The translations under genes and the position numbers were made by a program. A stretch of 64,000 bases of DNA from Candidatus Omnitrophota bacterium (GTDB lineage Bacteria > Omnitrophota > Omnitrophia > Omnitrophales > Aquincolibacteriaceae). Positions within the stretch are counted from its first letter, which is position 1, and each line of letters opens with the position of its first letter. The notes below the pieces were generated by a model. It saw nothing but the letters and a program-made list of their open reading frames with translations, searched no databases and had not been told where the DNA came from. Below, in pieces: positions 5,178 to 34,725 of this stretch. The DNA lies in NCBI GenBank assembly GCA_016196545.1, contig JACPXM010000022.1, forward strand, positions 5,064-69,063, given 5' to 3'.

Positions 5178-5519
5178 TTAAACGAGCGCCCGCTCTCCTC
5201 TTTCACGGGTCCGGATCCTGACAACTTCCTCCACTTCGTAGACGAAGATCTTTCCGTCGCCCACATTCCCCGTATAAGTGGATTCGATAAGAGTCTGAAT
5301 GATTTTTTCCAAATCCTTATCAATGCAGACGATTTCCACTTTCACTTTGGGAAGGAAATCAAGCTTGTACTTTTCCCCTCTCCATTGCTGGAAGGCGCCC
5401 TTTTGCATGCCGTGGCCTTCAATTTCAGTGATCGTGAGGCCGGGATAACCGGATTCCTCAAGGGCCTGTCGGACAACGTCCAATTTCTCAGGCCGGATAA
5501 TGGCTTCGATTTTTTTCAT
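5178..5519 (-). CDS. glnK: Nitrogen regulatory protein P-II (GlnB/GlnK family)
   Basis: 113-aa ORF with typical PII sequence (MKKIEAIIRP.., T-loop with Tyr51, ..GDGKIFV..). ATGA start/stop overlap with amt. Confidence 0.93.
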   Translation of the reverse strand: MKKIEAIIRPEKLDVVRQALEESGYPGLTITEIEGHGMQKGAFQQWRGEKYKLDFLPKVKVEIVCIDKDLEKIIQTLIESTYTGNVGDGKIFVYEVEEVVRIRTRERGERALV

Positions 5520-6919
5520 GAAATCACCTCACTGTATTCTCGCTTTTTTGACGAAGAGCTTCCTCCCGAATAGCTTGATGATTTTGCGGGGGGTTCTGCG
5601 GTTGATGTTGAATAGAAACTGTACGAAGGCTTGCGCGTCATAAATTCCGGATACGCCAAATTGCCGTGCTCACCGATATCCAGACCTTCGATTTCTTCCT
5701 GGAGCGTCACGCGCAATCCAATCGTATATTTAATGATAAACCAGCAAATCGCGGAAGCAATCAAAGTGAAAGCTCCAACTGCAGCAATGCCTGTGATTTG
5801 TGCCGTCAAAAGAGCAGTTCCCCCACCAAAGAAAAGACCGTTTCCAGTTGTGTTGGGACTCACCCAATCTTGCGCAAAAAGACCGACGCACAAAGTTCCA
5901 AAAGCACCGTTTACAAGATGCACCGACGTTGCACCTACGGGATCATCCACATGCACTTTGTCAAAGAAAATGACCGCCGGAACCACAATTGAACCTGCAA
6001 TTAAACCGATAATGGCGGCGCTTGAGATACTAACAAAAGCACAAGGCGCTGTAATGGCCACAAGACCCGCTAAACAACCATTCATGGTCATCCCAAGATC
6101 GGGTTTTTTCAAAAGGAGCCAAGACACTAACGTCGCGCCTAAAATACCTGTGCAGGCTGCCATATTTGTAGTCAAACAAATATGAGACATCAAACGGGGA
6201 TCCGCAGCCATCGTGCTACCAGGATTGAATCCAAACCATCCGAGCCAGAGAACCATTGTCCCAATTAAAGCCAGCGAAAGGTTATGGCCCGGAATCGCAT
6301 TAATTTGTCCTTTGGGTCCAAACTTACCAAATCGGGGACCCAGAATAATGGCACCCGTCAAAGCGGCCCATCCGCCTACGGAATGGACAACCGTGGAGCC
6401 GGCAAAATCCCAAAAGCCTGATTTTGCTAACCAACCCCCCCCCCAAATCCAGTGGCCGGTAATCGGATAAAGGATACCGACAAGCAGAAATGAGAAAACA
6501 ATGAATGAAAGATACTTAATGCGTCCACCCACCGAACCTGAAACAATAGTTGCCGCAGTTCCTGCAAACACCAATTGAAAGAAAAACTTAGCGCCAAGCG
6601 GTACCCCGGTCCAGTTAATCGAACTATAGACTCCCTGATAAGCATCCCCTGTTGCAGGGCTATTATCCGCTCCCCCTACCATCAATAGTCCCTGCAATCC
6701 CACAAAGGGATTACCATCCCCGAACATCAGGCCCCAGCCAACAAACCAAAAGGCCACCGTAGAGCAGGCAAATACAACGAAGTTTTTTGAAAGAATATTC
6801 ACGCAATTCTTGCTTTGCTGAAATCCGGCTTCCACACATCCAAAGCCGAGATTCATGAAAAACACAAGCATCGCAGTGATTAATACCCATAGGGTATCTA
6901 GCATCACCTTAGTTTCCAT
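5516..6919 (-). CDS. amt: Ammonium transporter (Amt/MEP family)
   Basis: 467-aa polytopic membrane ORF with Amt motifs (DFAGSTVVH, WGGGW, GAFGTLCVGLFA). GGGAG SD upstream. Confidence 0.93.
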   Translation of the reverse strand: METKVMLDTLWVLITAMLVFFMNLGFGCVEAGFQQSKNCVNILSKNFVVFACSTVAFWFVGWGLMFGDGNPFVGLQGLLMVGGADNSPATGDAYQGVYSSINWTGVPLGAKFFFQLVFAGTAATIVSGSVGGRIKYLSFIVFSFLLVGILYPITGHWIWGGGWLAKSGFWDFAGSTVVHSVGGWAALTGAIILGPRFGKFGPKGQINAIPGHNLSLALIGTMVLWLGWFGFNPGSTMAADPRLMSHICLTTNMAACTGILGATLVSWLLLKKPDLGMTMNGCLAGLVAITAPCAFVSISSAAIIGLIAGSIVVPAVIFFDKVHVDDPVGATSVHLVNGAFGTLCVGLFAQDWVSPNTTGNGLFFGGGTALLTAQITGIAAVGAFTLIASAICWFIIKYTIGLRVTLQEEIEGLDIGEHGNLAYPEFMTRKPSYSFYSTSTAEPPAKSSSYSGGSSSSKKREYSEVIS

Positions 6920-24699: not shown

Positions 24700-24778
24700 A
24701 AATGGGAGTTCCCCTTAAAATTGTATTTTTTAACTTCCTGCGCCCTGTATTCTCATATAAAATACCGCTTCACTTCAT

Positions 24779-24849
24779 TGCCCGATGGTGAAATGGTATC
24801 ACACCGCCCTTTGGAGGCGAGGTTCCTGGTTCGAGTCCAGGTCGGGCAG
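24779..24849 (+). tRNA. tRNA-Gln (anticodon UUG)
   Basis: Hand-folded cloverleaf. 7-bp acceptor TGCCCGA/TCGGGCA with U1-A72 and G73 as in bacterial tRNA-Gln. D stem GTGA/TCAC, anticodon loop CTTTGGA, T arm CCTGG-TTCGAGT-CCAGG. CCA is not encoded. Confidence 0.85.
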
Positions 24850-24870
24850 TTTCCCTCTTGGGAAACTACT

Positions 24871-24905
24871 GCACCGGGAAAGTTTAAGGAAAACTTTCCC
24901 GGTGC
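24871..24905. terminator. 15-bp perfect hairpin between convergent tRNA-Gln and ispE
   Basis: GCACCGGGAAAGTTT-aagga-AAACTTTCCCGGTGC. No clear U-tract on either strand. A smaller GTTTCCC/GGGAAAC hairpin lies at 24849-24866. Confidence 0.5.
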
Positions 24906-24942
24906 TGCAGCGTAATCTTACAAAACTCCGCTCAAATGCATC

Positions 24943-28089: not shown

Positions 28090-28296
28090 ATGAATCCTAT
28101 GGACGGAAGTATCGGAAACGAGAAAAAGGAAATATTAACGCCCCGGGAAATCAGCAAACTGCTGTCCATTCCACTTTCCACGGTTTATAAACTGACGGCC
28201 CAGGGAAAATTCAAGGCAACCAAAGTCGGAAAACACCTTCTGCCGTCGGACAGCTTTTCTGCGCCTTTATTTTTATCCTCTATTTTATCTACCTGA
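28090..28296 (+). CDS. Small helix-turn-helix protein, excisionase/MerR-like HTH with atypical C-terminus
   Basis: 68-aa ORF. LTPREISKLLSIPLSTVYKLTAQGKFKATKVGKH resembles the excisionase-family HTH (..STVYRL..G.L.A.KVGR.). The sequence after KVGKH departs from the usual WRF motif. Located in an AT-rich, otherwise non-coding gap. Confidence 0.45.
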   Translation: MNPMDGSIGNEKKEILTPREISKLLSIPLSTVYKLTAQGKFKATKVGKHLLPSDSFSAPLFLSSILST

Positions 28297-28333: not shown

Positions 28334-28416
28334 ATTGAAGTTGGGGTTTTTCAATTTCAAGGGTCGTCGTGTACAGTACCGCGAACCCCTAAAATTTAAA
28401 ATGACGCGGTACTAGG
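28334..28416 (+). repeat. Double-hairpin repeat element, copy A
   Basis: 28373-28416 is 100% identical (44 nt) to the reverse complement of 52752-52795. The hairpin at 28334-28360 is about 85% identical to the reverse complement of 52801-52826. The CTAG at its 3' end contains the stop codon of the MgtC-like gene on the other strand. Confidence 0.85.
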
Positions 28417-28861
28417 CGTCGTGGCCGCCGAAGAGACGATCAATTTTCGAGAAAAGAATCAAAATCACCAGGGCAAGAAAGGTCGAAAGAACGGCGGGTT
28501 TATATTGCCCTAGCCCGCACGCAAGGCCAATACCGGCCACGGTCCAAATCCCTGCGGCGGTTGTCAGTCCTTTGATTTCCCGAGGGTCGCGAATAATGGC
28601 CCCGGCTCCGAGAAATCCGATTCCGCTCACCACCTGCGCGGCAATACGCGAAGGATCCACCGTCGCCACGGCCCGGTAAATTTCAAAAACTTCAATCGAG
28701 ACAACCATGATTAAGGCCGAGCCTAGCGATACCATTGCGTAGGTCCGCACCCCGGCTTCCTTGCGCTGCCACTCGCGCTCAAAACCAATCAGTCCTCCGA
28801 GAAAAGTTGCCGCAATTAATCGAAGCGTAATGTCAAAATCATTCTGGGTGAATTGAAACAT
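28412..28861 (-). CDS. MgtC/SapB family membrane protein
   Basis: 149-aa ORF with the MgtC N-terminal domain pattern (..LRLIAATFLGGLIGFEREWQRKEAGVRTYAMVSLGSAL..). Confidence 0.85.
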   Translation of the reverse strand: MFQFTQNDFDITLRLIAATFLGGLIGFEREWQRKEAGVRTYAMVSLGSALIMVVSIEVFEIYRAVATVDPSRIAAQVVSGIGFLGAGAIIRDPREIKGLTTAAGIWTVAGIGLACGLGQYKPAVLSTFLALVILILFSKIDRLFGGHDA

Positions 28862-28878: not shown

Positions 28879-29940
28879 TTATCCCAATTTAAGATTCGCA
28901 TTCCCCGTAAGTTTCATCGAAGAACGTCTGCCGCGCCGGAAAAGCTCCGCGCCGCGGCGGGCAATCATTGCGGCGTTGTCGGTGGTCAAACGATTCGGTG
29001 GAAACCAAACCTTGAGGCCGCGCTTTGCGGCTTCTTCCGGTAATCGCTTGCGCAGATAAGAATTCGCGCTCACTCCCCCGCCCACGACAATGTCCGCGAC
29101 CTTTTTAACATCGGCAGCCGCCAGTGTTTTCTCAACCAGCCACGCGACGACGGCGTATTGGAAACTGGCGCAGACGTCGTTGACGAATTGTGAATTCAAT
29201 AATGGAGGGGCCGGCCCCTGCGCTGGCCCGCTGAACAATAATTGCGGGCGCCCGCGGGGGGGCGCCCCTACGTCTTGTTTCTCCACCAAATACAGCACCG
29301 CCGTTTTAATTCCGCTGAAACTGAAATCAAAGTATCCTTTTTGTTTTGGCTTCGTGAATTTAAATGCCTTGGGATTTCCTTCTTTGGCGAGCTTGTCAAT
29401 CACCGGCCCGCCCGGAAATCCGAGCCCCAAAATTTTTGCGACTTTGTCATAGGCCTCGCCCGCCGCGTCGTCCACGGTTTCACCCAGGCGCGTGGATTTC
29501 CCCTTTTTTTGATAAACCAAAATCGTGTGGCCACCCGAAACCAAAAGCCCGACATAATGAGCCGGCTCTTTGTGTCCAATAAAATTTGCAGACAAATGTG
29601 CTTCCAAATGATTCACGCCAATGAGCGGAACACCAAGACCATAAGCCAGAGTTTTCGCGAATGAGACTCCGACGAGGAGAGATCCAATAAGTCCCGGGCC
29701 TTCCGTGACAGCAATCAAATCAATATCTTTGGATTTAATTTTGGCTTCGTCCAGTGCTTCCTGAAACACAAAATCGATTTGCTCCAGCGAGTGCCGCGAC
29801 GCGATTTCCGGCACTACACCTCCAAACGGCTTGTGCCTGAAAAGGCTGGAAGAAATAATATTCGAGCGGACTTTGTCCAGTCCTTCCAGCACCGCGCAAG
29901 ACGTTTCATCACACGAAGTCTCAATTCCGAGGGTCAGCAT
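28879..29940 (-). CDS. tsaD: tRNA N6-adenosine threonylcarbamoyltransferase TsaD
   Basis: 353-aa ORF, MLTLGIETSCDETSCAV.., ..HLEAHL.., ..GGGVSAN... It contains an extra ~24-aa P/G-rich loop. Confidence 0.92.
   Translation of the reverse strand: MLTLGIETSCDETSCAVLEGLDKVRSNIISSSLFRHKPFGGVVPEIASRHSLEQIDFVFQEALDEAKIKSKDIDLIAVTEGPGLIGSLLVGVSFAKTLAYGLGVPLIGVNHLEAHLSANFIGHKEPAHYVGLLVSGGHTILVYQKKGKSTRLGETVDDAAGEAYDKVAKILGLGFPGGPVIDKLAKEGNPKAFKFTKPKQKGYFDFSFSGIKTAVLYLVEKQDVGAPPRGRPQLLFSGPAQGPAPPLLNSQFVNDVCASFQYAVVAWLVEKTLAAADVKKVADIVVGGGVSANSYLRKRLPEEAAKRGLKVWFPPNRLTTDNAAMIARRGAELFRRGRRSSMKLTGNANLKLG
29196..29271. repeat. Cluster of GC-only palindromes inside tsaD (in-frame insert)
   Basis: AGGGGCCGGCCCCT (29206-29219), GCGGGCGCCCGC (29244-29255) and GGGGCGCCCC (29259-29268), each preceded by CAATAAT. 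The segment encodes GAPPRGRPQLLFSGPAQGPAPPLL, which has no counterpart in E. coli TsaD as I recall it. Confidence 0.5.
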
Positions 29941-29943
29941 ATG

Positions 29944-30339
29944 TCAATTTTTTCTTACTTTTTTTATGAATAAAACACCAAAATACGATACTCCATATAT
30001 CAAAGGCACACCAAAGAAATATAAATATTCATGAGTTGTATCCCCTTGGAGATCAAACTTAACATAAGTGCCGCTCAAAAAAATGCCTGTAGCTCCGAAT
30101 AAAAGAACGCTCCCAAAAAACCATGGATATTTCTGAAGTTTTTCCGGACTTACAATAATGCTTACCCATAGAGCTATAATTGACATGATGCCCAAGAACC
30201 AAATCGGCCTTCCAGCCAAACCAAACGGGCCATAGGAATAGGGATTAAAAAACATTTTGATCATATCCGGCAAAAGAAAAACAGTTGTCGGCAAGGCTAT
30301 GATACAAATCAGGAAAATTTTTATAATCCAACCAATCAT
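29944..30339 (-). CDS. Hypothetical small integral membrane protein (about 4 TM)
   Basis: 131-aa hydrophobic ORF, AT-richer than its neighbours. It lies 4 nt upstream of tsaD and 18 nt downstream of the nuclease gene. I recognise no family. Confidence 0.6.
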   Translation of the reverse strand: MIGWIIKIFLICIIALPTTVFLLPDMIKMFFNPYSYGPFGLAGRPIWFLGIMSIIALWVSIIVSPEKLQKYPWFFGSVLLFGATGIFLSGTYVKFDLQGDTTHEYLYFFGVPLIYGVSYFGVLFIKKVRKN

Positions 30340-30357: not shown

Positions 30358-31344
30358 TTAGTCATTCACCCTCACAGCTAATTCTTTGTCGAGCAATTCC
30401 TGGTTGATATAAATTTTACCGGCCCAAACGTCAGCGAGGTAGCGGTCGTATTTGTCGGACCTCACGGTTTTGATCATCACCGGCGAGGAGTGACGCGTGG
30501 CGGGTGACAGAAGTTTTTTAAGAAATTCTTTGGCTTCCTTGCCTTCCGCACTTTCGATTTCGGGAGCGTCGAGGCCGCGCAGCCGGAGTTTCTGGTGCGT
30601 CCAAATTCCGAAGCCAAGGTGAATGTTCGCCCAAAACGTGTCGCCGTCAATCACATCTTCAACTTGAACTTCGTAAGTATAAAGGTCCTCCGCGGGAGGA
30701 TTTGTGGGTTCCGGCACTGGACCTTTAATTTCATAAAAATTAGCAAAGCCGAGGTCGTAAACTTTTTTGCCGTTCCAATCAATCACAAGATAGGTCCCGA
30801 TTTTCCCGGGCTTGGCAACTAGGGGCACGGTAGGCCACGTCTCTGCTTCGGAACCGCCCGACCGGGACTTGCGTTTGCGAATTTCCTCGCGCACCTGGTC
30901 TCGCGTCCAATTCCGATTTAGGGCTTCCCTGGCAACGGCTTCTCTTTCTTCAGGATCGTTAAGCGATAAAAGCGCCTGGTAATGACTCCAGCTCAATTTA
31001 TTGGCGGGCCAATTCATTGGGTACGCTCGGGCAAATTGGAGCATCAAACTAAGTTCCGTTTGGCTGGTGCCAAGATCTCCTGCCAGTTTATCGAGTACCC
31101 TCTTTCCATAATCAGCCCTTTCTTTAAATTGAAGGACATGCTCATCAATTAACTTTCCGGTCTCCCAAGCCTCGCGAACTTTTTCCTGCCTAACAGCAGA
31201 CTCAATTCGCTGAACGGTGGCGGCGCGCGTCTGGCGAATCGCCTTCACGAGCTGCTCGTAAGTCGCCACCTGCGACGCGGCAATCGCAGGAAAAGAGAAT
31301 AAAAAAAATAAAATTCTAACTAAGTTTTTTGGTGAGAATTTCAT
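30358..31344 (-). CDS. Secreted nuclease: signal peptide + DUF1016 N-terminal-like domain + staphylococcal-nuclease (SNase) domain
   Basis: ATG at 31344 gives MKFSPKNLVRILFFLFSFPAIAA|SQ (Sec signal, AxA). The middle part resembles DUF1016_N (..YGKRVLDKLAGDLG.., LSWSHYQALLSL). The C-terminal part has SNase motifs (VIDGDTF.., LRLRGLDAPE, DKYDRYLADVW). The track start at 31428 is a TTG. Confidence 0.75.
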   Translation of the reverse strand: MKFSPKNLVRILFFLFSFPAIAASQVATYEQLVKAIRQTRAATVQRIESAVRQEKVREAWETGKLIDEHVLQFKERADYGKRVLDKLAGDLGTSQTELSLMLQFARAYPMNWPANKLSWSHYQALLSLNDPEEREAVAREALNRNWTRDQVREEIRKRKSRSGGSEAETWPTVPLVAKPGKIGTYLVIDWNGKKVYDLGFANFYEIKGPVPEPTNPPAEDLYTYEVQVEDVIDGDTFWANIHLGFGIWTHQKLRLRGLDAPEIESAEGKEAKEFLKKLLSPATRHSSPVMIKTVRSDKYDRYLADVWAGKIYINQELLDKELAVRVND

Positions 31345-31384
31345 TGGCGAGTTTGGGATTGGCTTTGCCGCTTTGCTCTTGCAA
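31316..31384 (-). pseudogene. Diverged duplicate of the gatB 3' end (22 codons + stop), in frame with gatB
   Basis: It translates to [22 protein letters not shown], compared with the genuine gatB end [23 protein letters not shown]. Over the 17 aligned codons from GKANP to the stop there are 9 synonymous and 2 non-synonymous differences. Confidence 0.7.
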
Positions 31385-31432
31385 AGCGACTCTTTGGGGA
31401 GAACTTGAGGTTCTCCTCCGAAGCGCAAACCC

Positions 31433-32965
31433 TCAACTTAGTTTCCTTACCAAGATCTCATTTGCAAGTTTCGGGTTTGCTTTGCCTTGCGTCTCTTTCA
31501 TGAGTTGGCCGACGAGAAAGCCGAGCGCCTGCCGTTTCCCCGCTTTGAAATCCGCCACAGATTTAGGATGGGCAGCAATGATTTTATCGGCGGCACTTTC
31601 CAGGAGCTTGGTGTCCGTCACTTGCTCCAGGCTTTTTTCTTTAACGACCGTACCGGGTGATTTTCCGCTTTCATAAGAAATGGCAACCACGTCCTTTGCG
31701 ATTTTTCCACTAATCGTTTGGTTTTCAATTAAACCGAGGAGCTCCGCCAAATAAGTTGCAGGAAAAAATTTAGGCAAGGTCTCAACCGTGTGCTTATTAG
31801 AATTTACAAGAGCAAGTAACTCCGATTGAATCCAGTTGCTTGCGAGTTTTGGATTTGCTTTTTCCGCTACCGCAGTTTCAAAATAATTTGCGAGCTGTTT
31901 ATCTTGCACAAGGACCAAGGCATCATAATCGGAAAGACTGTAATTTTTGATAAAACGGTCCACACGCTGAACCGGAAGTTCGGGCAAGTCTTTGCGAATG
32001 CCTTCTACCGTCTCCTTGGAAATTGAAAACGGTACCAGGTCCGGCTCGGGGAAATAACGGTAATCGTGAGCCTCTTCTTTTGATCTCATTGTAAAGGTTT
32101 GTCCTTTGGTTTCATTCCACAGCCGGGTTTCTTGAATCACGCGTTCGTGACTCTCCAAAAGGTCGGTTTGACGTTTGATTTCATATTGAATGGCCTTTTG
32201 GACTGCCTTGAAGGAATTCATATTTTTGATTTCGGCTTTGGTGCCGAATTTAGATTCACCCGCTTTTCGAATCGAAACATTGGCGTCGCAGCGCAGGCTT
32301 CCTTCCTCCATATTGCAATCGCTTACTTCCAGGTATTGAAGAATGGCTTTGAGTGAAGTGAGATAAGCGTAAGCCTCTTCCGGAGAGCGGAGGTCGGGCT
32401 CCGAGACAATTTCAAGAAGGGGTGTGCCCGCACGGTTGTAATCGACGAGACTCGCGGCCGCAATCCCTTCGTGAAGCAGTTTCCCTGCGTCTTCTTCCAA
32501 ATGCGCGCGCGTAATTCCGATTTTTTTTGTGATCATCTTTTTGTCATCCTGAACTTTTTGGCTATCCCCCTGAGCTTCTGGGTTCTCCATTTTAGATGCT
32601 TCGGCGTCCGGACTCAGAATAACCGCTTTATTAGGTTTATATTCAATTTCGAGCCAGCCCTTGCCGTTGACAGGGTTATCGTATTGAGAAATTTGATACG
32701 CCTTCGGAAGGTCGGGATAAAAATAATTTTTTCGGTCAAATTTCAGTCGTCCTGAGATTTCGCAGTTGAGGGCCAGTCCCACTTTGAGCGCAAGTTTGAG
32801 CGCCTCTTCATTTAAGACCGGAAGCGAGCCCGGCCAGCCCAAACAGACAGGACAAGTATTTTTATTCGGCTCTTCGCCAAACTTCGTTGAGCACCCGCAA
32901 AAGAGTTTCGATTGCGTTAATAATTGGACGTGGACTTCAAGTCCAATGACGGGTTCGTAATTCAT
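31433..32965 (-). CDS. gatB: Asp/Glu-tRNA(Asn/Gln) amidotransferase subunit B
   Basis: 510-aa [18 protein letters not shown].., ..[13 protein letters not shown].., ..[11 protein letters not shown].., with a C-terminal YqeY-like tail. Confidence 0.95.
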
Positions 32966-34422
32966 AATTTTGGTTTTTGTTTGTAATAACCGGTTTCTTG
33001 CTCAAAGGCGTGGCCGGCGCGGAAAATTGTTTCTTCGTCAAAAGGCTTGGCCATTAATTGCATTCCGATCGGCAGTCCGGATTTTGTGAAGCCGCAAGGC
33101 AGTGACATTGCCGGAATTCCAGCCAGGTTCACGGGGATCGTAAAAATATCGGATAAATACATCGCAAGCGGGTCCGAGGATTTTTCGCCGATTTTAAACG
33201 GAGGGGTGGGGGCCGTGGGCGATAAAATCAAATCCACTTCCTTGAAGGCCTGGGTGAAATCTTCGCGAATCAGCGTTCTCACCTTCTGACCTTTGAGATA
33301 ATAAGCTTCATAATAGCCGGCCGAGAGGACAAAAGTGCCGAGCAGTATTCTGCGCTTGGCTTCTGCTCCAAATCCCTGGCTTCGGGTTTCAAAATACATT
33401 TCCTTTAAATCTTTGGCGGGCACACGAAATCCGAATTCGACTCCGTCAAATCTTCCAAGATTGGAACTTGCTTCTGCGACGGCAACAATATAATAAACCG
33501 CCACGGAATATTCCGTGTGGGGCAGACTCACCGGTTTGATTTCCGCTCCGAGTTTTTTAAATATCTCGGCAGCGTCACGCACGGATTTTTCAACCTCCTT
33601 GTCCATTCCCTCGACAAAATATTCTTTGGGAAGGCCGATTTTGAGGCCTTTGATTTGCTGCGTGAGCGCCTTGGTATAGTCCGGCACCGGGTTTGGCGCG
33701 GAGGTGGAGTCTCGGGAGTCGTGGCCTGCAAGAATATTCATTAAGATCGCACAGTCCTCCACCGTTTTGGTGAGAGGCCCGATTTGATCAAAGCTCGAAC
33801 CAAAGGCAATAAGCCCGTAGCGAGAAATCCTTCCGTAAGTCGGTTTGAGTCCTACAATACCGCAAAACGCGGCGGGCTGGCGAATCGAACCTCCGGTATC
33901 GGAACCGAGCGCTGCGTAAGTCATGTCTGCAGCAACCGCCGCTGCAGAGCCCCCACTGGAACCTCCCGGCACACGCTCTATATCCCACGGATTTTTCACA
34001 GGGCCAAACGCAGAAGATTCATTGGAGGAGCCAAAGGCGAATTCATCCATATTGCATTGGCTAAAAAGGGTGGCACCCGCGGTTTTGAGTTTTTCAATGA
34101 CGGTCGCGTCGTAAGGAGGGACATGGCCCGCAAGAATTTTTGAGGCACAAGTGGTTTCCAGGCCGCGGATGCAAATATTGTCTTTGATGGAAATCGGAAC
34201 ACCCGCCAAGGGACCCGTGACAGGGGACGGGTGAGGGGGAGAATCAGATTTATTAAATCTTAAAAATGCGTTAAGTCTAGGGTTTAGACTTTCGGCACGG
34301 GAGATAAGGGCATCGAAAAGAGTTTTGTTCCCCTCTTTTTTCGAGTAATCTATTGCCTCTTTGAACGTCAATTGATGAAGCGGCGTATTCCCTTTTTCCG
34401 CTTTAATGGAACTACCGGTCAC
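32962..34422 (-). CDS. gatA: Glu-tRNA(Gln) amidotransferase subunit A
   Basis: 486-aa ORF with the amidase signature (..[13 protein letters not shown].., ..[12 protein letters not shown]..). GTG start, and ATGA-type overlap with gatB. Confidence 0.95.
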
Positions 34423-34443: not shown

Positions 34444-34725
34444 TTATTTATCCACCACTTTGGGAACTTTGAAGAAATTGCCTTCGCGCCCGGGGGCGTG
34501 TTTGAGGACCTCGTCACGTACTTGGGAAGGGTTGACTTGGTCGGGGCGGAAAACATTTTCGATTTCTAAAACATGACTGGTAGGGGACACATTTTGAGTG
34601 TCCAAGGTTTCAAGTTTTTTAACATAGCCGAGAATGGCTTCCAAATCATTTTTCAGTTTCGCAGCTTCCTCAGGTTTCAAATGAAGCCTGGCCAGCCCGG
34701 CGATTTTTTCGATTTCAAACGACAT
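34444..34725 (-). CDS. gatC: Glu-tRNA(Gln) amidotransferase subunit C
   Basis: 93-aa ORF, ..IAGLARLHLKPEEAAKLKNDLEAILGYVKKL.., upstream of gatA. Confidence 0.9.
   Translation of the reverse strand: MSFEIEKIAGLARLHLKPEEAAKLKNDLEAILGYVKKLETLDTQNVSPTSHVLEIENVFRPDQVNPSQVRDEVLKHAPGREGNFFKVPKVVDK

Follow-up and report, generated by a model that had tools for sequence, protein, structure and literature searches.

Two diverged gatB ends around a structured spacer in an Omnitrophota genome

Why would a housekeeping gene end twice? Within the window analysed here – a 64,000-nucleotide stretch of DNA from a Candidatus Omnitrophota bacterium – gatB encodes a protein that is 100% identical to P0001, an NCBI Omnitrophica MAG protein. 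The gene closes on the minus strand with a TGA at 31435-31433, and after a gap of 63 nt its last codons appear again and run to a TAG at 31318-31316. We call the two versions tail1 and tail2. An earlier note on this DNA had read tail2 as a foreign remnant tied to the nuclease and 4-TM genes that follow it. We favor, with a probability of about 0.5, a reading in which a discrete 115-117-nt cassette bounded by GGNAAAGC entered by recombination and pushed the resident gatB tail downstream.

The two tails and their divergence

The second copy of the gatB C-terminus is real. Minus-strand translation of 31316-31525 reads both tails, and a repeat finder independently recovers the pair (52 nt, 71% identical, start-to-start spacing 117). 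Solid homology is limited to 17 codons and the stop (31316-31369), less than the 22 codons originally claimed. The 117-nt spacing equals 39 codons, hence tail2 is in frame with gatB in the window; this relation had been given meaning, but it is incidental because the spacing is 115 nt at a homologous locus, L171, where tail2 falls out of frame. A phmmer search with the 38-residue read-through peptide returned no match among 1.84 billion proteins, and we rejected a stop-codon readthrough extension of GatB on the grounds that the L171 spacer has an in-frame TAG, with tail2 in the +1 frame.

Of 51 nt, 15 differ between the tails, and our recount over 17 codons confirms the 9 synonymous changes and two amino-acid replacements (V>T, R>K) reported before. 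By Nei-Gojobori counts, the window tails show 11.0 synonymous differences (Sd) over 11.5 synonymous sites and 4.0 non-synonymous differences (Nd) over 39.5 sites (Fisher p = 3e-8). When 15 random substitutions were placed in the tail, 0 of 50,000 simulations left two or fewer amino-acid changes (mean 9.4). Between tail1 and tail2 of one genome, pS is 0.96 in the window and above 1 in L171, and pN is 0.04-0.10 overall and 0.10 in the window, all tail statistics being computed over 51 nt. With synonymous sites saturated and non-synonymous changes few, this is not random divergence, and the counts and simulations uphold the view that the tails diverged like functional gatB ends and not through recent tandem slippage. 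Since functional gatB ends diverge in this way, the comparison argues that two tails cannot be accounted for without recombination or integration across lineages.

Local tandem duplication (by slippage or unequal crossing-over, with drift of the dead copy) or an assembly artefact would be the simplest alternatives, and a direct repeat with close spacing and 8-nt identity at both repeat starts is what duplication might leave. But the 54-nt tail alone is repeated, the sequence after tail2 is no copy of the spacer, both peptides are intact although synonymous sites are saturated, and the supposedly dead tail2 matches the family consensus exactly. Mis-assembly of the two-tail junction, which the earlier note had named as a possible refutation, is unlikely because the Logan assembly of run SRR12113416 (L164) matches the window at 100% identity over 460 nt spanning both tails; two assemblers gave the identical junction, and a diverged homologue exists in an unrelated sample. 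The second assembly, the codon-structured divergence and the L171 homologue refute both ideas, which we hold to be extremely improbable.

Table 1. Coordinates of the gatB junction and neighboring genes in the window
Feature	Position	Strand	Basis or remark
gatB CDS, 510 aa	31433..32965	-	Pfam GatB_N 1.9e-124, GatB_Yqey 1.4e-46
tail1, functional last 17 codons of gatB + TGA	31433..31486	-	minus-strand translation
tail2, putatively displaced copy of gatB end, 17 codons + TAG	31316..31369	-	minus-strand translation
117-nt cassette: substitute tail (17 codons) + TGA + 63-nt hairpin spacer	31370..31486	-	matched in L171 by a homologous 115-nt unit in the same position
Structured spacer	31370..31432	-	consensus fold, covariation
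Predicted H1	3' arm 31432-31425 with 31480-31473	-	second arm inside tail1
Predicted H2	31419-31410 with 31404-31396	-	
Predicted H3	31389-31381 with 31376-31368	-	
Predicted closing helix	31424-31421 with 31365-31362	-	
DUF1016_N + SNase nuclease gene, 328 aa	30358..31344	-	Pfam 1e-18 and 1.9e-9; ATG 31344-31342
4-TM ORFan gene	29944..30339	-	outside duplication
tsaD	28879..29940	-	Pfam TsaD; directly after gatB in most relatives

A structured cassette and its distribution

The window cassette begins with GGCAAAGC (31486-31479) and adjoins another copy of GGCAAAGC (31369-31362), with which tail2 opens. It folds to a minimum free energy of -42.6 kcal/mol (z = -4.07), and 0 of 200 shuffles fold as well. 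A homologous arrangement is present in L171, an unrelated metagenome contig from an independent sample, run SRR20074300, whose GatB is 70% identical to that of the window. Its order is the same – tail1, stop, homologous spacer, tail2, stop – with a spacing of 115 nt; its border repeats are GGCAAAGC and GGAAAAGC, and the cassette borders are the same in both hosts. About 49 of 63 aligned spacer positions are identical (roughly 78%). Homology between the two loci ends right after the tail2 stop, beyond which the window has the nuclease and L171 has an 83-aa ORF and Band_7 genes.

The consensus fold of the two sequences contains 4 compensatory double changes in the 26 stem pairs of H1-H3; across all 36 predicted pairs there are 5, and none is changed on one side only or broken. 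With L172 added as a third sequence (its row aligned to the model), 98.5% of cells are paired and 10 pairs have changed on both sides, a level that 0 of 500 shuffles reach and for which slid controls give 0-1. Judged from these compensatory changes, the cassette carries a structured RNA (or single-stranded DNA) element. The L172 copy (938-1011; 51.7 bits, E about 1e-11) lies outside gatB, inside an anti-sigma-like ORF, and carries no gatB tail. The hairpin element therefore appears to be a separable unit. The L168 orthologue of that ORF is without hairpins (-52 vs -25 kcal/mol, L172 vs L168); protein and DNA alignments were too loose to establish that L172 differs from L168 by a clean insertion of 54 nt. 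The element has one solid copy in the 64 kb window and three in 1.75 Mb of loci. A second covariance-model match in the window (24847-24901) was rejected as a family member, being a hairpin pair beside tRNA-Gln on the opposite strand.

No Rfam 15 family matched inside 31316-31486 up to E = 10; the 601 nt searched gave just two Rfam matches, both within the nuclease gene and well short of their gathering scores. The junction showed no terminator-like or promoter-like consensus. Compared with the gatB 3' regions of the window genome and 13 relatives, spacer 31370-31432 reached a best local score of 17 (shuffles 18.1 +/- 2.2); an upstream extension of the remnant in another frame (PKS..F..KRQ) was dropped, its alignment to these 14 regions being no better than shuffles. 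We likewise set aside a diversity-generating retroelement, the tail differences not being at adenines, and an integron attC site, for which the R'/R'' consensus was absent by eye. We also rejected an independent small ORF with the tail peptide at its end, as its start and frame through the spacer are not conserved: L171 has an ATG-started 47-aa ORF, whereas in the window the counterpart of that ATG meets a TAA after 4 codons and there is a 22-codon TTG ORF only.

Two cassette-bearing loci are known, the window and L171. P0060, a relative of L171, has 167 nt of gap behind its gatB. Of the 161 gatB loci first examined, 159 have one tail, and the cassette is absent from all other loci examined, among them L168 and L172 (85-86% amino-acid identical to L171), L169/L170, L161, L001 and L081. 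A covariance-model search of about 30 Omnitrophota loci found no donor-type locus (gatB, stop and hairpins, no second tail), and searches of IMG/VR viral contigs by tail pattern, spacer pattern and GatB found no cassette-like or GatB-encoding sequence. The gatC-gatA-gatB-tsaD-mgtC order occurs in L002, L004, L005, L006, L081, L083, L085, L086 and L169; apart from L161 and L171, eight relatives combine a single tail with gatB-tsaD adjacency.

Residency of the tails and readings of the locus

Codon usage separates the two tails. Tail1 of the window scores -0.19, the 1st percentile of 17,705 host windows, and tail1 of L171 lies at the 0th percentile, while tail2 stands at the 98th percentile in the window and the 49th in L171. 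The final 17-codon block alone is atypical in gatB of both hosts (-0.20 and -0.27 vs about +0.1 for upstream blocks), and the two tail1 copies have atypical codons in common. RNA structure was rejected as the cause of the rare tail1 codons: random synonymous recoding gives folds as good or better in 30% of cases, and within tail1 covariation is seen in the H1 arm only.

Comparison with relatives gave a similar asymmetry in the window, where tail2 is nearer than tail1 to the gatB tails of all 12 nearest relatives compared. At the amino-acid level tail2 is the same as in L001/P0007 and P0018, and its nucleotide identity is 43/51 to L001, 42/51 to L161 and 42/51 to tail2 of L171. For tail1, the closest DNA match among the 128 gatB tails first compared is 37/51; tail1 of L171, at 41/51, is the closest of all gatB tails compared. 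The L171 tails give an ambiguous residency signal against L168/L172 (40 vs 38 and 36 vs 41 of 51). Identity to relatives revealed no mosaic breakpoint inside gatB, the identical-codon fractions of tail1 (0.40-0.43) not differing significantly from that of the gene (0.50). Codon usage and the relatives' tails suggest that tail2 is the resident gatB end and tail1 the newcomer, which inverts the polarity first proposed.

In that first proposal, a fragment from another lineage – the last 18 gatB codons with the nuclease and 4-TM genes – would have landed behind the resident gatB with its own 3' hairpins, anchored by homology in tsaD. One event would then cover both the second tail and the nuclease. 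Adjacency of gatB and tsaD in most relatives implies that the nuclease and 4-TM genes were inserted, the nuclease family occurs in variable contexts, and L161, with a nuclease directly after a single-tailed gatB, indicates that such donors exist. But L171 contradicts the proposal with a homologous tail2 at the same junction and no nuclease, the codon outlier in both hosts is tail1 and not tail2, and the nuclease has a host-typical composition. The supposed tie between the duplication and the nuclease and 4-TM genes is broken by two tails without nuclease in L171 and by the nuclease beside a single tail in L161. We consider this polarity very unlikely.

In the displacement reading that we prefer, the 117-nt cassette would have been inserted 17 codons before the original gatB stop, bringing a substitute 17 codons with their own TGA and a 63-nt hairpin element whose first hairpin would pair the substitute tail with bases just 3' of the stop. 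gatB would stay functional because the cassette supplies the end that was cut off, and the resident end would survive, untranslated, as a direct repeat 117 nt further downstream. The second GGCAAAGC would represent the first codons (Gly-Lys-Ala) of the displaced tail and also the 3' arm of the closing helix, and precise loss of 117 or 115 nt would join GGCAAAGC directly to CCAATCCC. The cassette would have come from another lineage; taking the anatomy, conservation, covariation, codon asymmetry and patchy distribution as observed, we infer the direction of transfer and the recombination mechanism. The joint on the gatB side may be homologous, via the strongly conserved block that immediately precedes the tail, and the other joint may lie at the short GGNAAAGC / GCCAATCCCAAACT identity; GGNAAAGC is common to the closing helix of the element and the tail start. 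Such an anatomy could result from homology-facilitated illegitimate recombination or from an indel allele transferred through homology. At least one other lineage, that of L171, would have undergone this event too or received the cassette as it spread.

Divergence between the hosts bears on how recent such a transfer could be. Between the window and L171, tail1 has a pS of 0.59 (pN/pS about 0.15), tail2 has one codon replaced besides 7 synonymous changes (pN/pS about 0.08), and host genes have a pS of 0.78. The tail2 divergence is what would be expected if resident tails had been displaced recently. At a GatB identity of only 70% between the two lineages, tail2 is still coding-like in both. 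The cassette copies (tail1 pS 0.59, spacer identity roughly 78%) have diverged about as deeply as the host genes, and therefore nothing shows recent transfer; vertical descent of the cassette with many losses is also conceivable.

A variant that we regard as unlikely is a self-contained "tail-swap" cassette that lives in an essential gene by means of its recoded 17 codons and either moves at GGNAAAGC or is skipped by ribosomes, with both tails under coding selection. More doubtful still is an old, vertically inherited module with both tails in use, for example through a jump, by ribosomes or in RNA processing, over the cassette from GGC-AAA to the following GGN-AAA, so that some GatB molecules would carry tail2 as their end and the others tail1; we give it little credence. 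Coding-type conservation of both tails between lineages (pN/pS about 0.15 for tail1 and 0.08 for tail2) and a cassette divergence resembling that of the genes speak for the module. So do the AAA (and GGC) codons that match at both borders, the rare GCA codon and foot of H1 directly after the first AAA, and the compact folding of the gap (z = -4.1). Known bypass sites likewise combine structured mRNA with take-off and landing codons that match (PMC5462505; bioRxiv 10.1101/2022.08.31.505936), and lengths of 117 and 115 nt mean that use of tail2 would have to be frame-independent, as bypassing is.

Features shared with programmed bypassing, as in T4 gene 60 and related mobile cases (PMC5462505; bioRxiv 10.1101/2022.08.31.505936), are a structured non-coding gap within a coding sequence, identical border codons and a gap length free of the reading frame. 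Unlike T4 gene 60, with a gap of 50 nt, gatB has a gap of 115-117 nt, more than twice any known bypass gap, and no stop codon follows the putative take-off codon. Moreover, the gatB gap itself holds a complete alternative gene end, and bypass is needless when tail1 already completes GatB. Vertical descent would also demand many independent, precise losses. Neither a tail-swap nor a ribosome-skipped element in a housekeeping gene has been described before.

Known systems and the nuclease start

Integrative elements that insert at the 3' ends of tRNA, tmRNA or protein genes bring along a replacement for that end, and decayed derivatives flanked by att sites exist. The gatB locus resembles them in its gene-end duplication: the upstream functional copy would be element-borne, the downstream copy a resident remnant and the target intact. 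Unlike such elements, the cassette is without recombinase or cargo, has 63 nt between its repeats and shares 8 nt of exact identity only. It might be the footprint of a site-specific integrative element with its attachment site GGNAAAGC in the gatB 3' end, a minimal att-flanked unit, akin to the cis-mobilisable remnants of such elements, which brought a surrogate gene end and would be moved in trans by a recombinase from another locus. Discrete borders, shared by two lineages and marked by an 8-nt direct repeat, would fit, as would the unit's patchy distribution, the foreign-looking codons of the surrogate tail in both hosts and the inverted repeat H3 that adjoins the right junction. Insertions at the gatB end recur, as indicated by a Poribacteria genome (L079) in which a 204-nt, 92% identical gatB-end repeat flanks an inserted 134-aa ORF. 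Against a footprint stand the absence of any integrase or transposase within 5 kb either side of the cassette (the only candidate being a small HTH_17 ORF 3 kb away), the null IMG/VR result and the L172 hairpin copy without a gatB tail. To our knowledge, minimal attP sites are far larger than the 115-117-nt unit. We judge a footprint distinctly unlikely.

The direct repeat of the gatB 3' end, with the functional copy upstream and an orphan copy downstream, matches what is seen in 3'-end displacement. [quoted passage not shown] In Rhs, CDI and T6SS effector loci (PMC5361080), as in gatB, an anchor in the conserved part of the gene is followed by a new 3' end and non-homologous DNA, and the old end lies downstream as a diverged direct repeat. 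Unlike those loci, gatB encodes a housekeeping tRNA amidotransferase subunit, both of its ends give the same peptide and nothing is diversified. Its displaced piece is only 18 codons long, its import is a 63-nt hairpin element and not a toxin-immunity module, and the same product is found in two distant lineages.

A double-hairpin unit of about 55-75 nt just 3' of a stop codon also recalls REP/BIME, MITEs and Rickettsia palindromic elements (PMC10969869). The last of these occur in frame inside genes (PMC10969869), as does the homologous hairpin pair in the L172 ORF, with covarying stems. Unlike REP- or MITE-type repeats, the gatB element is not high-copy in the available sequence, has no recognised terminal inverted repeats or short target duplications, and is fused to 17 gene-specific codons. 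A covarying hairpin element with a gene-specific coding tail, outside the Rfam 15 families, is a concrete search model for Omnitrophota genomes, in the form of covariance model R2 or the pattern TTTGCGCTTCGGASGAGARCCTCAAG.

If the displacement reading is true, the last codons of an essential, highly conserved gene can be replaced by foreign DNA without loss of function, and the old end left behind can be recruited as the start of a neighboring gene. For annotation, tail2 should not be labelled a pseudogene of a second gatB.

Such recruitment may have occurred in the window genome only, where the AAT-GAA (Asn-Glu) codons of the displaced tail would give an out-of-frame ATG for the nuclease and the next 9 codons the charged n-region of its signal peptide. 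Overprinting, or capture of a gene start, places a start in an alternative frame of coding or formerly coding sequence. The nuclease resembles this in that its ATG and 9 codons lie in another frame of gatB-derived codons; unlike typical overprinting, the case involves a loosely constrained signal-peptide n-region alone and may be an old 29-nt gene overlap. The earlier note was right that the ATG and first 9 codons (MKFSPKNLV) are read from tail2, but overprinting on a dead tail is only one possibility; equally, the overlap of the nuclease start with the tail may date from a time when gatB still used that tail. No alternative in-frame ATG, GTG or TTG would keep the signal peptide, and a start at 31344 is reasonable from the sequence and in keeping with the family.

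Among 1093 homologues of the nuclease, 20 of the 22 examined have a hydrophobic, signal-peptide-like N-terminus, usually with an Ala-rich site after it, before the conserved V.TY(D/E)QL motif; P0140 and P0161 are without an obvious hydrophobic stretch. With both domains and such an N-terminus, the protein is predicted to belong to a secreted DUF1016_N-SNase family, members of which occur beside toxin-antitoxin genes and beside a tRNA end. A Shine-Dalgarno motif is absent upstream of the nuclease, and likewise of gatB, gatA and tsaD. ORFs within about 5 kb comprise hisG, ZIP, the HTH_17 ORF, mgtC, tsaD, the 4-TM gene, the nuclease, gatCAB, rsmA and pdxA. The 4-TM protein had no homologue besides itself among 5.8 billion proteins; its gene has a GC content of 35% (vs 48.5% for the window) and a strong AAGGAGG upstream.

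The gatB 3' end and its second copy

Seven genes of the window, from gatC to mgtC, follow one order with every gene on the minus strand. Reading on past the gatB TGA adds 38 codons that include a repeat of the GatB C-terminus, and translation reproduced this extension exactly as an earlier note on the sequence had given it. The same note put the repeat at 22 codons. The 63-nt stretch that leads from the gatB stop to the second GGC gave no detectable gatB homology, which limits the duplicate to 17 codons and a stop. Below, tail1 denotes the functional gatB end, tail2 the downstream copy, and the cassette the 117-nt unit of tail1 plus the spacer that separates the two.

Features of the gatB region in the window
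Feature	Position	Strand
gatC	34444-34725	-
gatA	32962-34422	-
gatB	31433-32965	-
tail1 (17 codons and TGA)	31433-31486	-
spacer	31370-31432	-
tail2 (17 codons and TAG)	31316-31369	-
DUF1016_N + SNase nuclease	30358-31344	-
4-TM ORF	29944-30339	-
tsaD	28879-29940	-
mgtC	28412-28861	-

A repeat finder also picked up the tail pair (52 nt, 71% identical, spacing 117). Across the 17 common codons, the 15 nucleotide differences amount to nine synonymous codon changes and two replacements (Nei-Gojobori Sd 11.0 of 11.5 sites, Nd 4.0 of 39.5 sites; Fisher p = 3e-8), and in 50,000 simulations that each scattered 15 random substitutions the peptide never stayed so intact. Where the amino acid is the same, 6 of 15 codons are identical – about the level we estimated from codon frequencies for two independent back-translations, so the tails are synonymously saturated. 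A 460-nt stretch spanning the two tails recurs without mismatch in a Logan assembly (run SRR12113416). Slippage or an artefact as the source of the second tail is contradicted by this codon-structured divergence, by the identical junction in the Logan assembly, and by L171, a second carrier. We conclude that the duplicated gatB end is real, non-random and no isolated scar.

A protein from an NCBI Candidatus Omnitrophica MAG matches the window GatB at 100% identity; the runner-up among 5.8 billion proteins reaches only 72%, which leaves no relative at strain or species level. Nine relatives have a single tail, with gatB followed directly by tsaD-mgtC (L002, L004, L005, L006, L081, L083, L085, L086 and L169); in L169 synteny extends to ZIP and hisG, as in the window. 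In an initial set of 161 gatB loci, just the window and a Poribacteria locus have two tails.

The latter (L079:1190-2170, Candidatus Poribacteria chromosome OY764061.1, near the record end) is a second, independent duplicated gatB end. Its direct repeat (204 nt, 92% identical, 723 nt spacing) takes in the final ~190 nt of gatB and 12 nt past the stop. An inserted 134-aa ORF without a Pfam match lies between the copies, and a 104-aa ORF has its C-terminus in the downstream copy. Separately, the gatB-tsaD intergenic spacers of L002, L005, L083 and L085 contain long GC-rich inverted or direct repeats (for example ccgga/gtacgg; L085 z = -3.8) with no sequence kinship to the window hairpins described below. 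Within GatB itself, a charged low-complexity insertion of ~30 aa interrupts the GatB_N domain (32530-32650, minus strand, residues ~107-145; 510 aa in the window, defined against 480-aa homologues), and proteins P0002, P0006 and P0007 have other insertions at this position.

A second carrier and the probable order of arrival

We observed the same arrangement in L171, a Logan metagenome contig from a different run whose GatB is 70% identical to that of the window. There, GKANPKMANEILVKKLS-TAG is followed by a spacer homologous to the window spacer and then by a second tail. The alignment runs from tail1 to the tail2 stop at ~80% identity (our count), and similarity ends exactly past that stop. 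L171 carries no nuclease. Two loci closer to L171 (L168 and L172, 85-86% aa identical) have a single tail each.

The earlier note had read tail2 as a remnant that probably came from a different gatB allele or lineage, a polarity that L171 contradicts. Relative to host codon usage, tail1 and tail2 lie at the 1st and 98th percentiles in the window and at the 0th and 49th in L171. The atypical usage is confined, in each genome, to the last 17-codon block, with normal blocks just upstream, and structure does not account overall for the atypicality of tail1. Tail2 is closer than tail1 to 12 of 12 close relatives, and the best DNA match to the window tail1 among all gatB tails compared is that of L171 (41/51). 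These sequence comparisons point to tail1 as the probable newcomer.

Between the window and L171, pS and pN are 0.59 and 0.087 for tail1, 0.62 and 0.05 for tail2, and 0.78 and 0.18 for the gatB body; low pN relative to pS indicates that both tails evolve like coding sequence. A coding-like tail2 is what one would expect of a recently displaced resident end in each genome, but would be hard to explain for a dead tail2 in an old module. Coding-like evolution of both tails also fits a less likely rival reading, in which an old module has both of its tails in use (bypassing). In L171 the spacing is 115 nt, the spacer carries an in-frame TAG and tail2 lies in the +1 frame, so readthrough is not common to both carriers. 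L171 encodes an ATG-started 47-aa ORF (5415-5558) that begins, in the +1 frame, at the AAT-GAG of tail1, crosses the hairpin spacer and terminates with the second tail; the window has no equivalent.

The hairpin spacer and a candidate mechanism

The cassette is predicted to be strongly structured (MFE -42.6 kcal/mol, z = -4.07), while equivalent regions in most relatives are unstructured. The window and L171 share a consensus fold of three hairpins, in the first of which GCAAAYCC within tail1 pairs with GGRTTTGC directly past the stop. Four of the 26 stem pairs carry compensatory double changes, and none of the predicted pairs is broken or altered on one side only. One further strong match to a covariance model lies at L172:938-1011 (51.7 bits), where the hairpins lie without gatB tails, in frame inside an anti-sigma-like ORF (..VRVPVSEESAKLSQNGTRAQARVEKE..) that sits upstream of gatC beside an ECF sigma gene. 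In L168 the orthologous ORF lacks these hairpins (-25 kcal/mol versus -52 for L172). When all three are folded together, with the L172 row aligned to the model, 98.5% of cells pair; both sides are changed in 10 pairs, a level of covariation reached by none of 500 shuffles; slid controls gave 0-1.

We favour a discrete cassette – a substitute tail, stop and hairpins, bounded by GGNAAAGC – that would have been acquired by recombination from another lineage, displacing the resident tail; two carriers are known, and the tails span only 51 nt. Homology or microhomology could have been supplied by a strongly conserved upstream block and by the GGCAAAGCCAATCCCAAACT block in the resident tail. [quoted passage not shown] Among the roughly 30 Omnitrophota loci searched we found no donor-type locus (gatB, stop and hairpins with no second tail). 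A less likely rival is a recombinase-driven mini-element. The in-frame L172 copy resembles palindromic elements sitting inside genes. We found no further convincing copy in the 1.75 Mb searched and no Rfam family. We see the duplicated gatB end as a variation on recombination and mobile-repeat phenomena already described.

Elsewhere in the window (24778-24910), a plus-strand tRNA-Gln(UUG), alone among minus-strand genes, has two strong hairpins behind it, with stems of 7 bp and about 18 bp, that the covariance model matches weakly on the opposite strand (19.6 bits).

The nuclease start and neighbouring genes

Relative to the usual gatB-tsaD adjacency, shown by the nine relatives, the nuclease and 4-TM genes are inserted. 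In L161 (GatB 71% identical), the nuclease immediately follows a single-tailed gatB. As the earlier note had proposed, the tail2 Asn-Glu codons AAT-GAA create the nuclease ATG in another frame, and nuclease codons 1-9 (MKFSPKNLV) lie within tail2 sense codons. Codon 10 (Arg) straddles the tail2 TAG, and the T-rich stretch beyond encodes the signal-peptide h-region. Apart from a TTG at 31428, ATG 31344 is the sole canonical in-frame start that preserves the signal-peptide-like N-terminus. Such a hydrophobic N-terminus precedes the conserved V.TY(D/E)QL motif in 20 of 22 homologues read; it was not obvious in P0140 and P0161. No Shine-Dalgarno motif precedes the nuclease ATG, and gatB, gatA and tsaD likewise have none.

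The adjacent 4-TM ORF encodes a 131-aa four-helix membrane protein at 35% GC (genome, 48.5%), has a perfect AAGGAGG ribosome-binding site, and ends 3 nt short of the tsaD ATG. It is an ORFan, matching only itself among 5.8 billion proteins. Between mgtC and the ZIP transporter lies a plus-strand 68-aa ORF (28090-28296) with an excisionase-type helix-turn-helix (HTH_17); no gene is called at this site in syntenic L169.

The nuclease family is large in Omnitrophota (1093 matches). Other homologues neighbour toxin-antitoxin genes (MazE/PIN and BrnT in L162 and L167) or a tRNA 3' end (L166:1-230), which suggests that in Omnitrophota the DUF1016_N-SNase gene moves together with accessory or island DNA.
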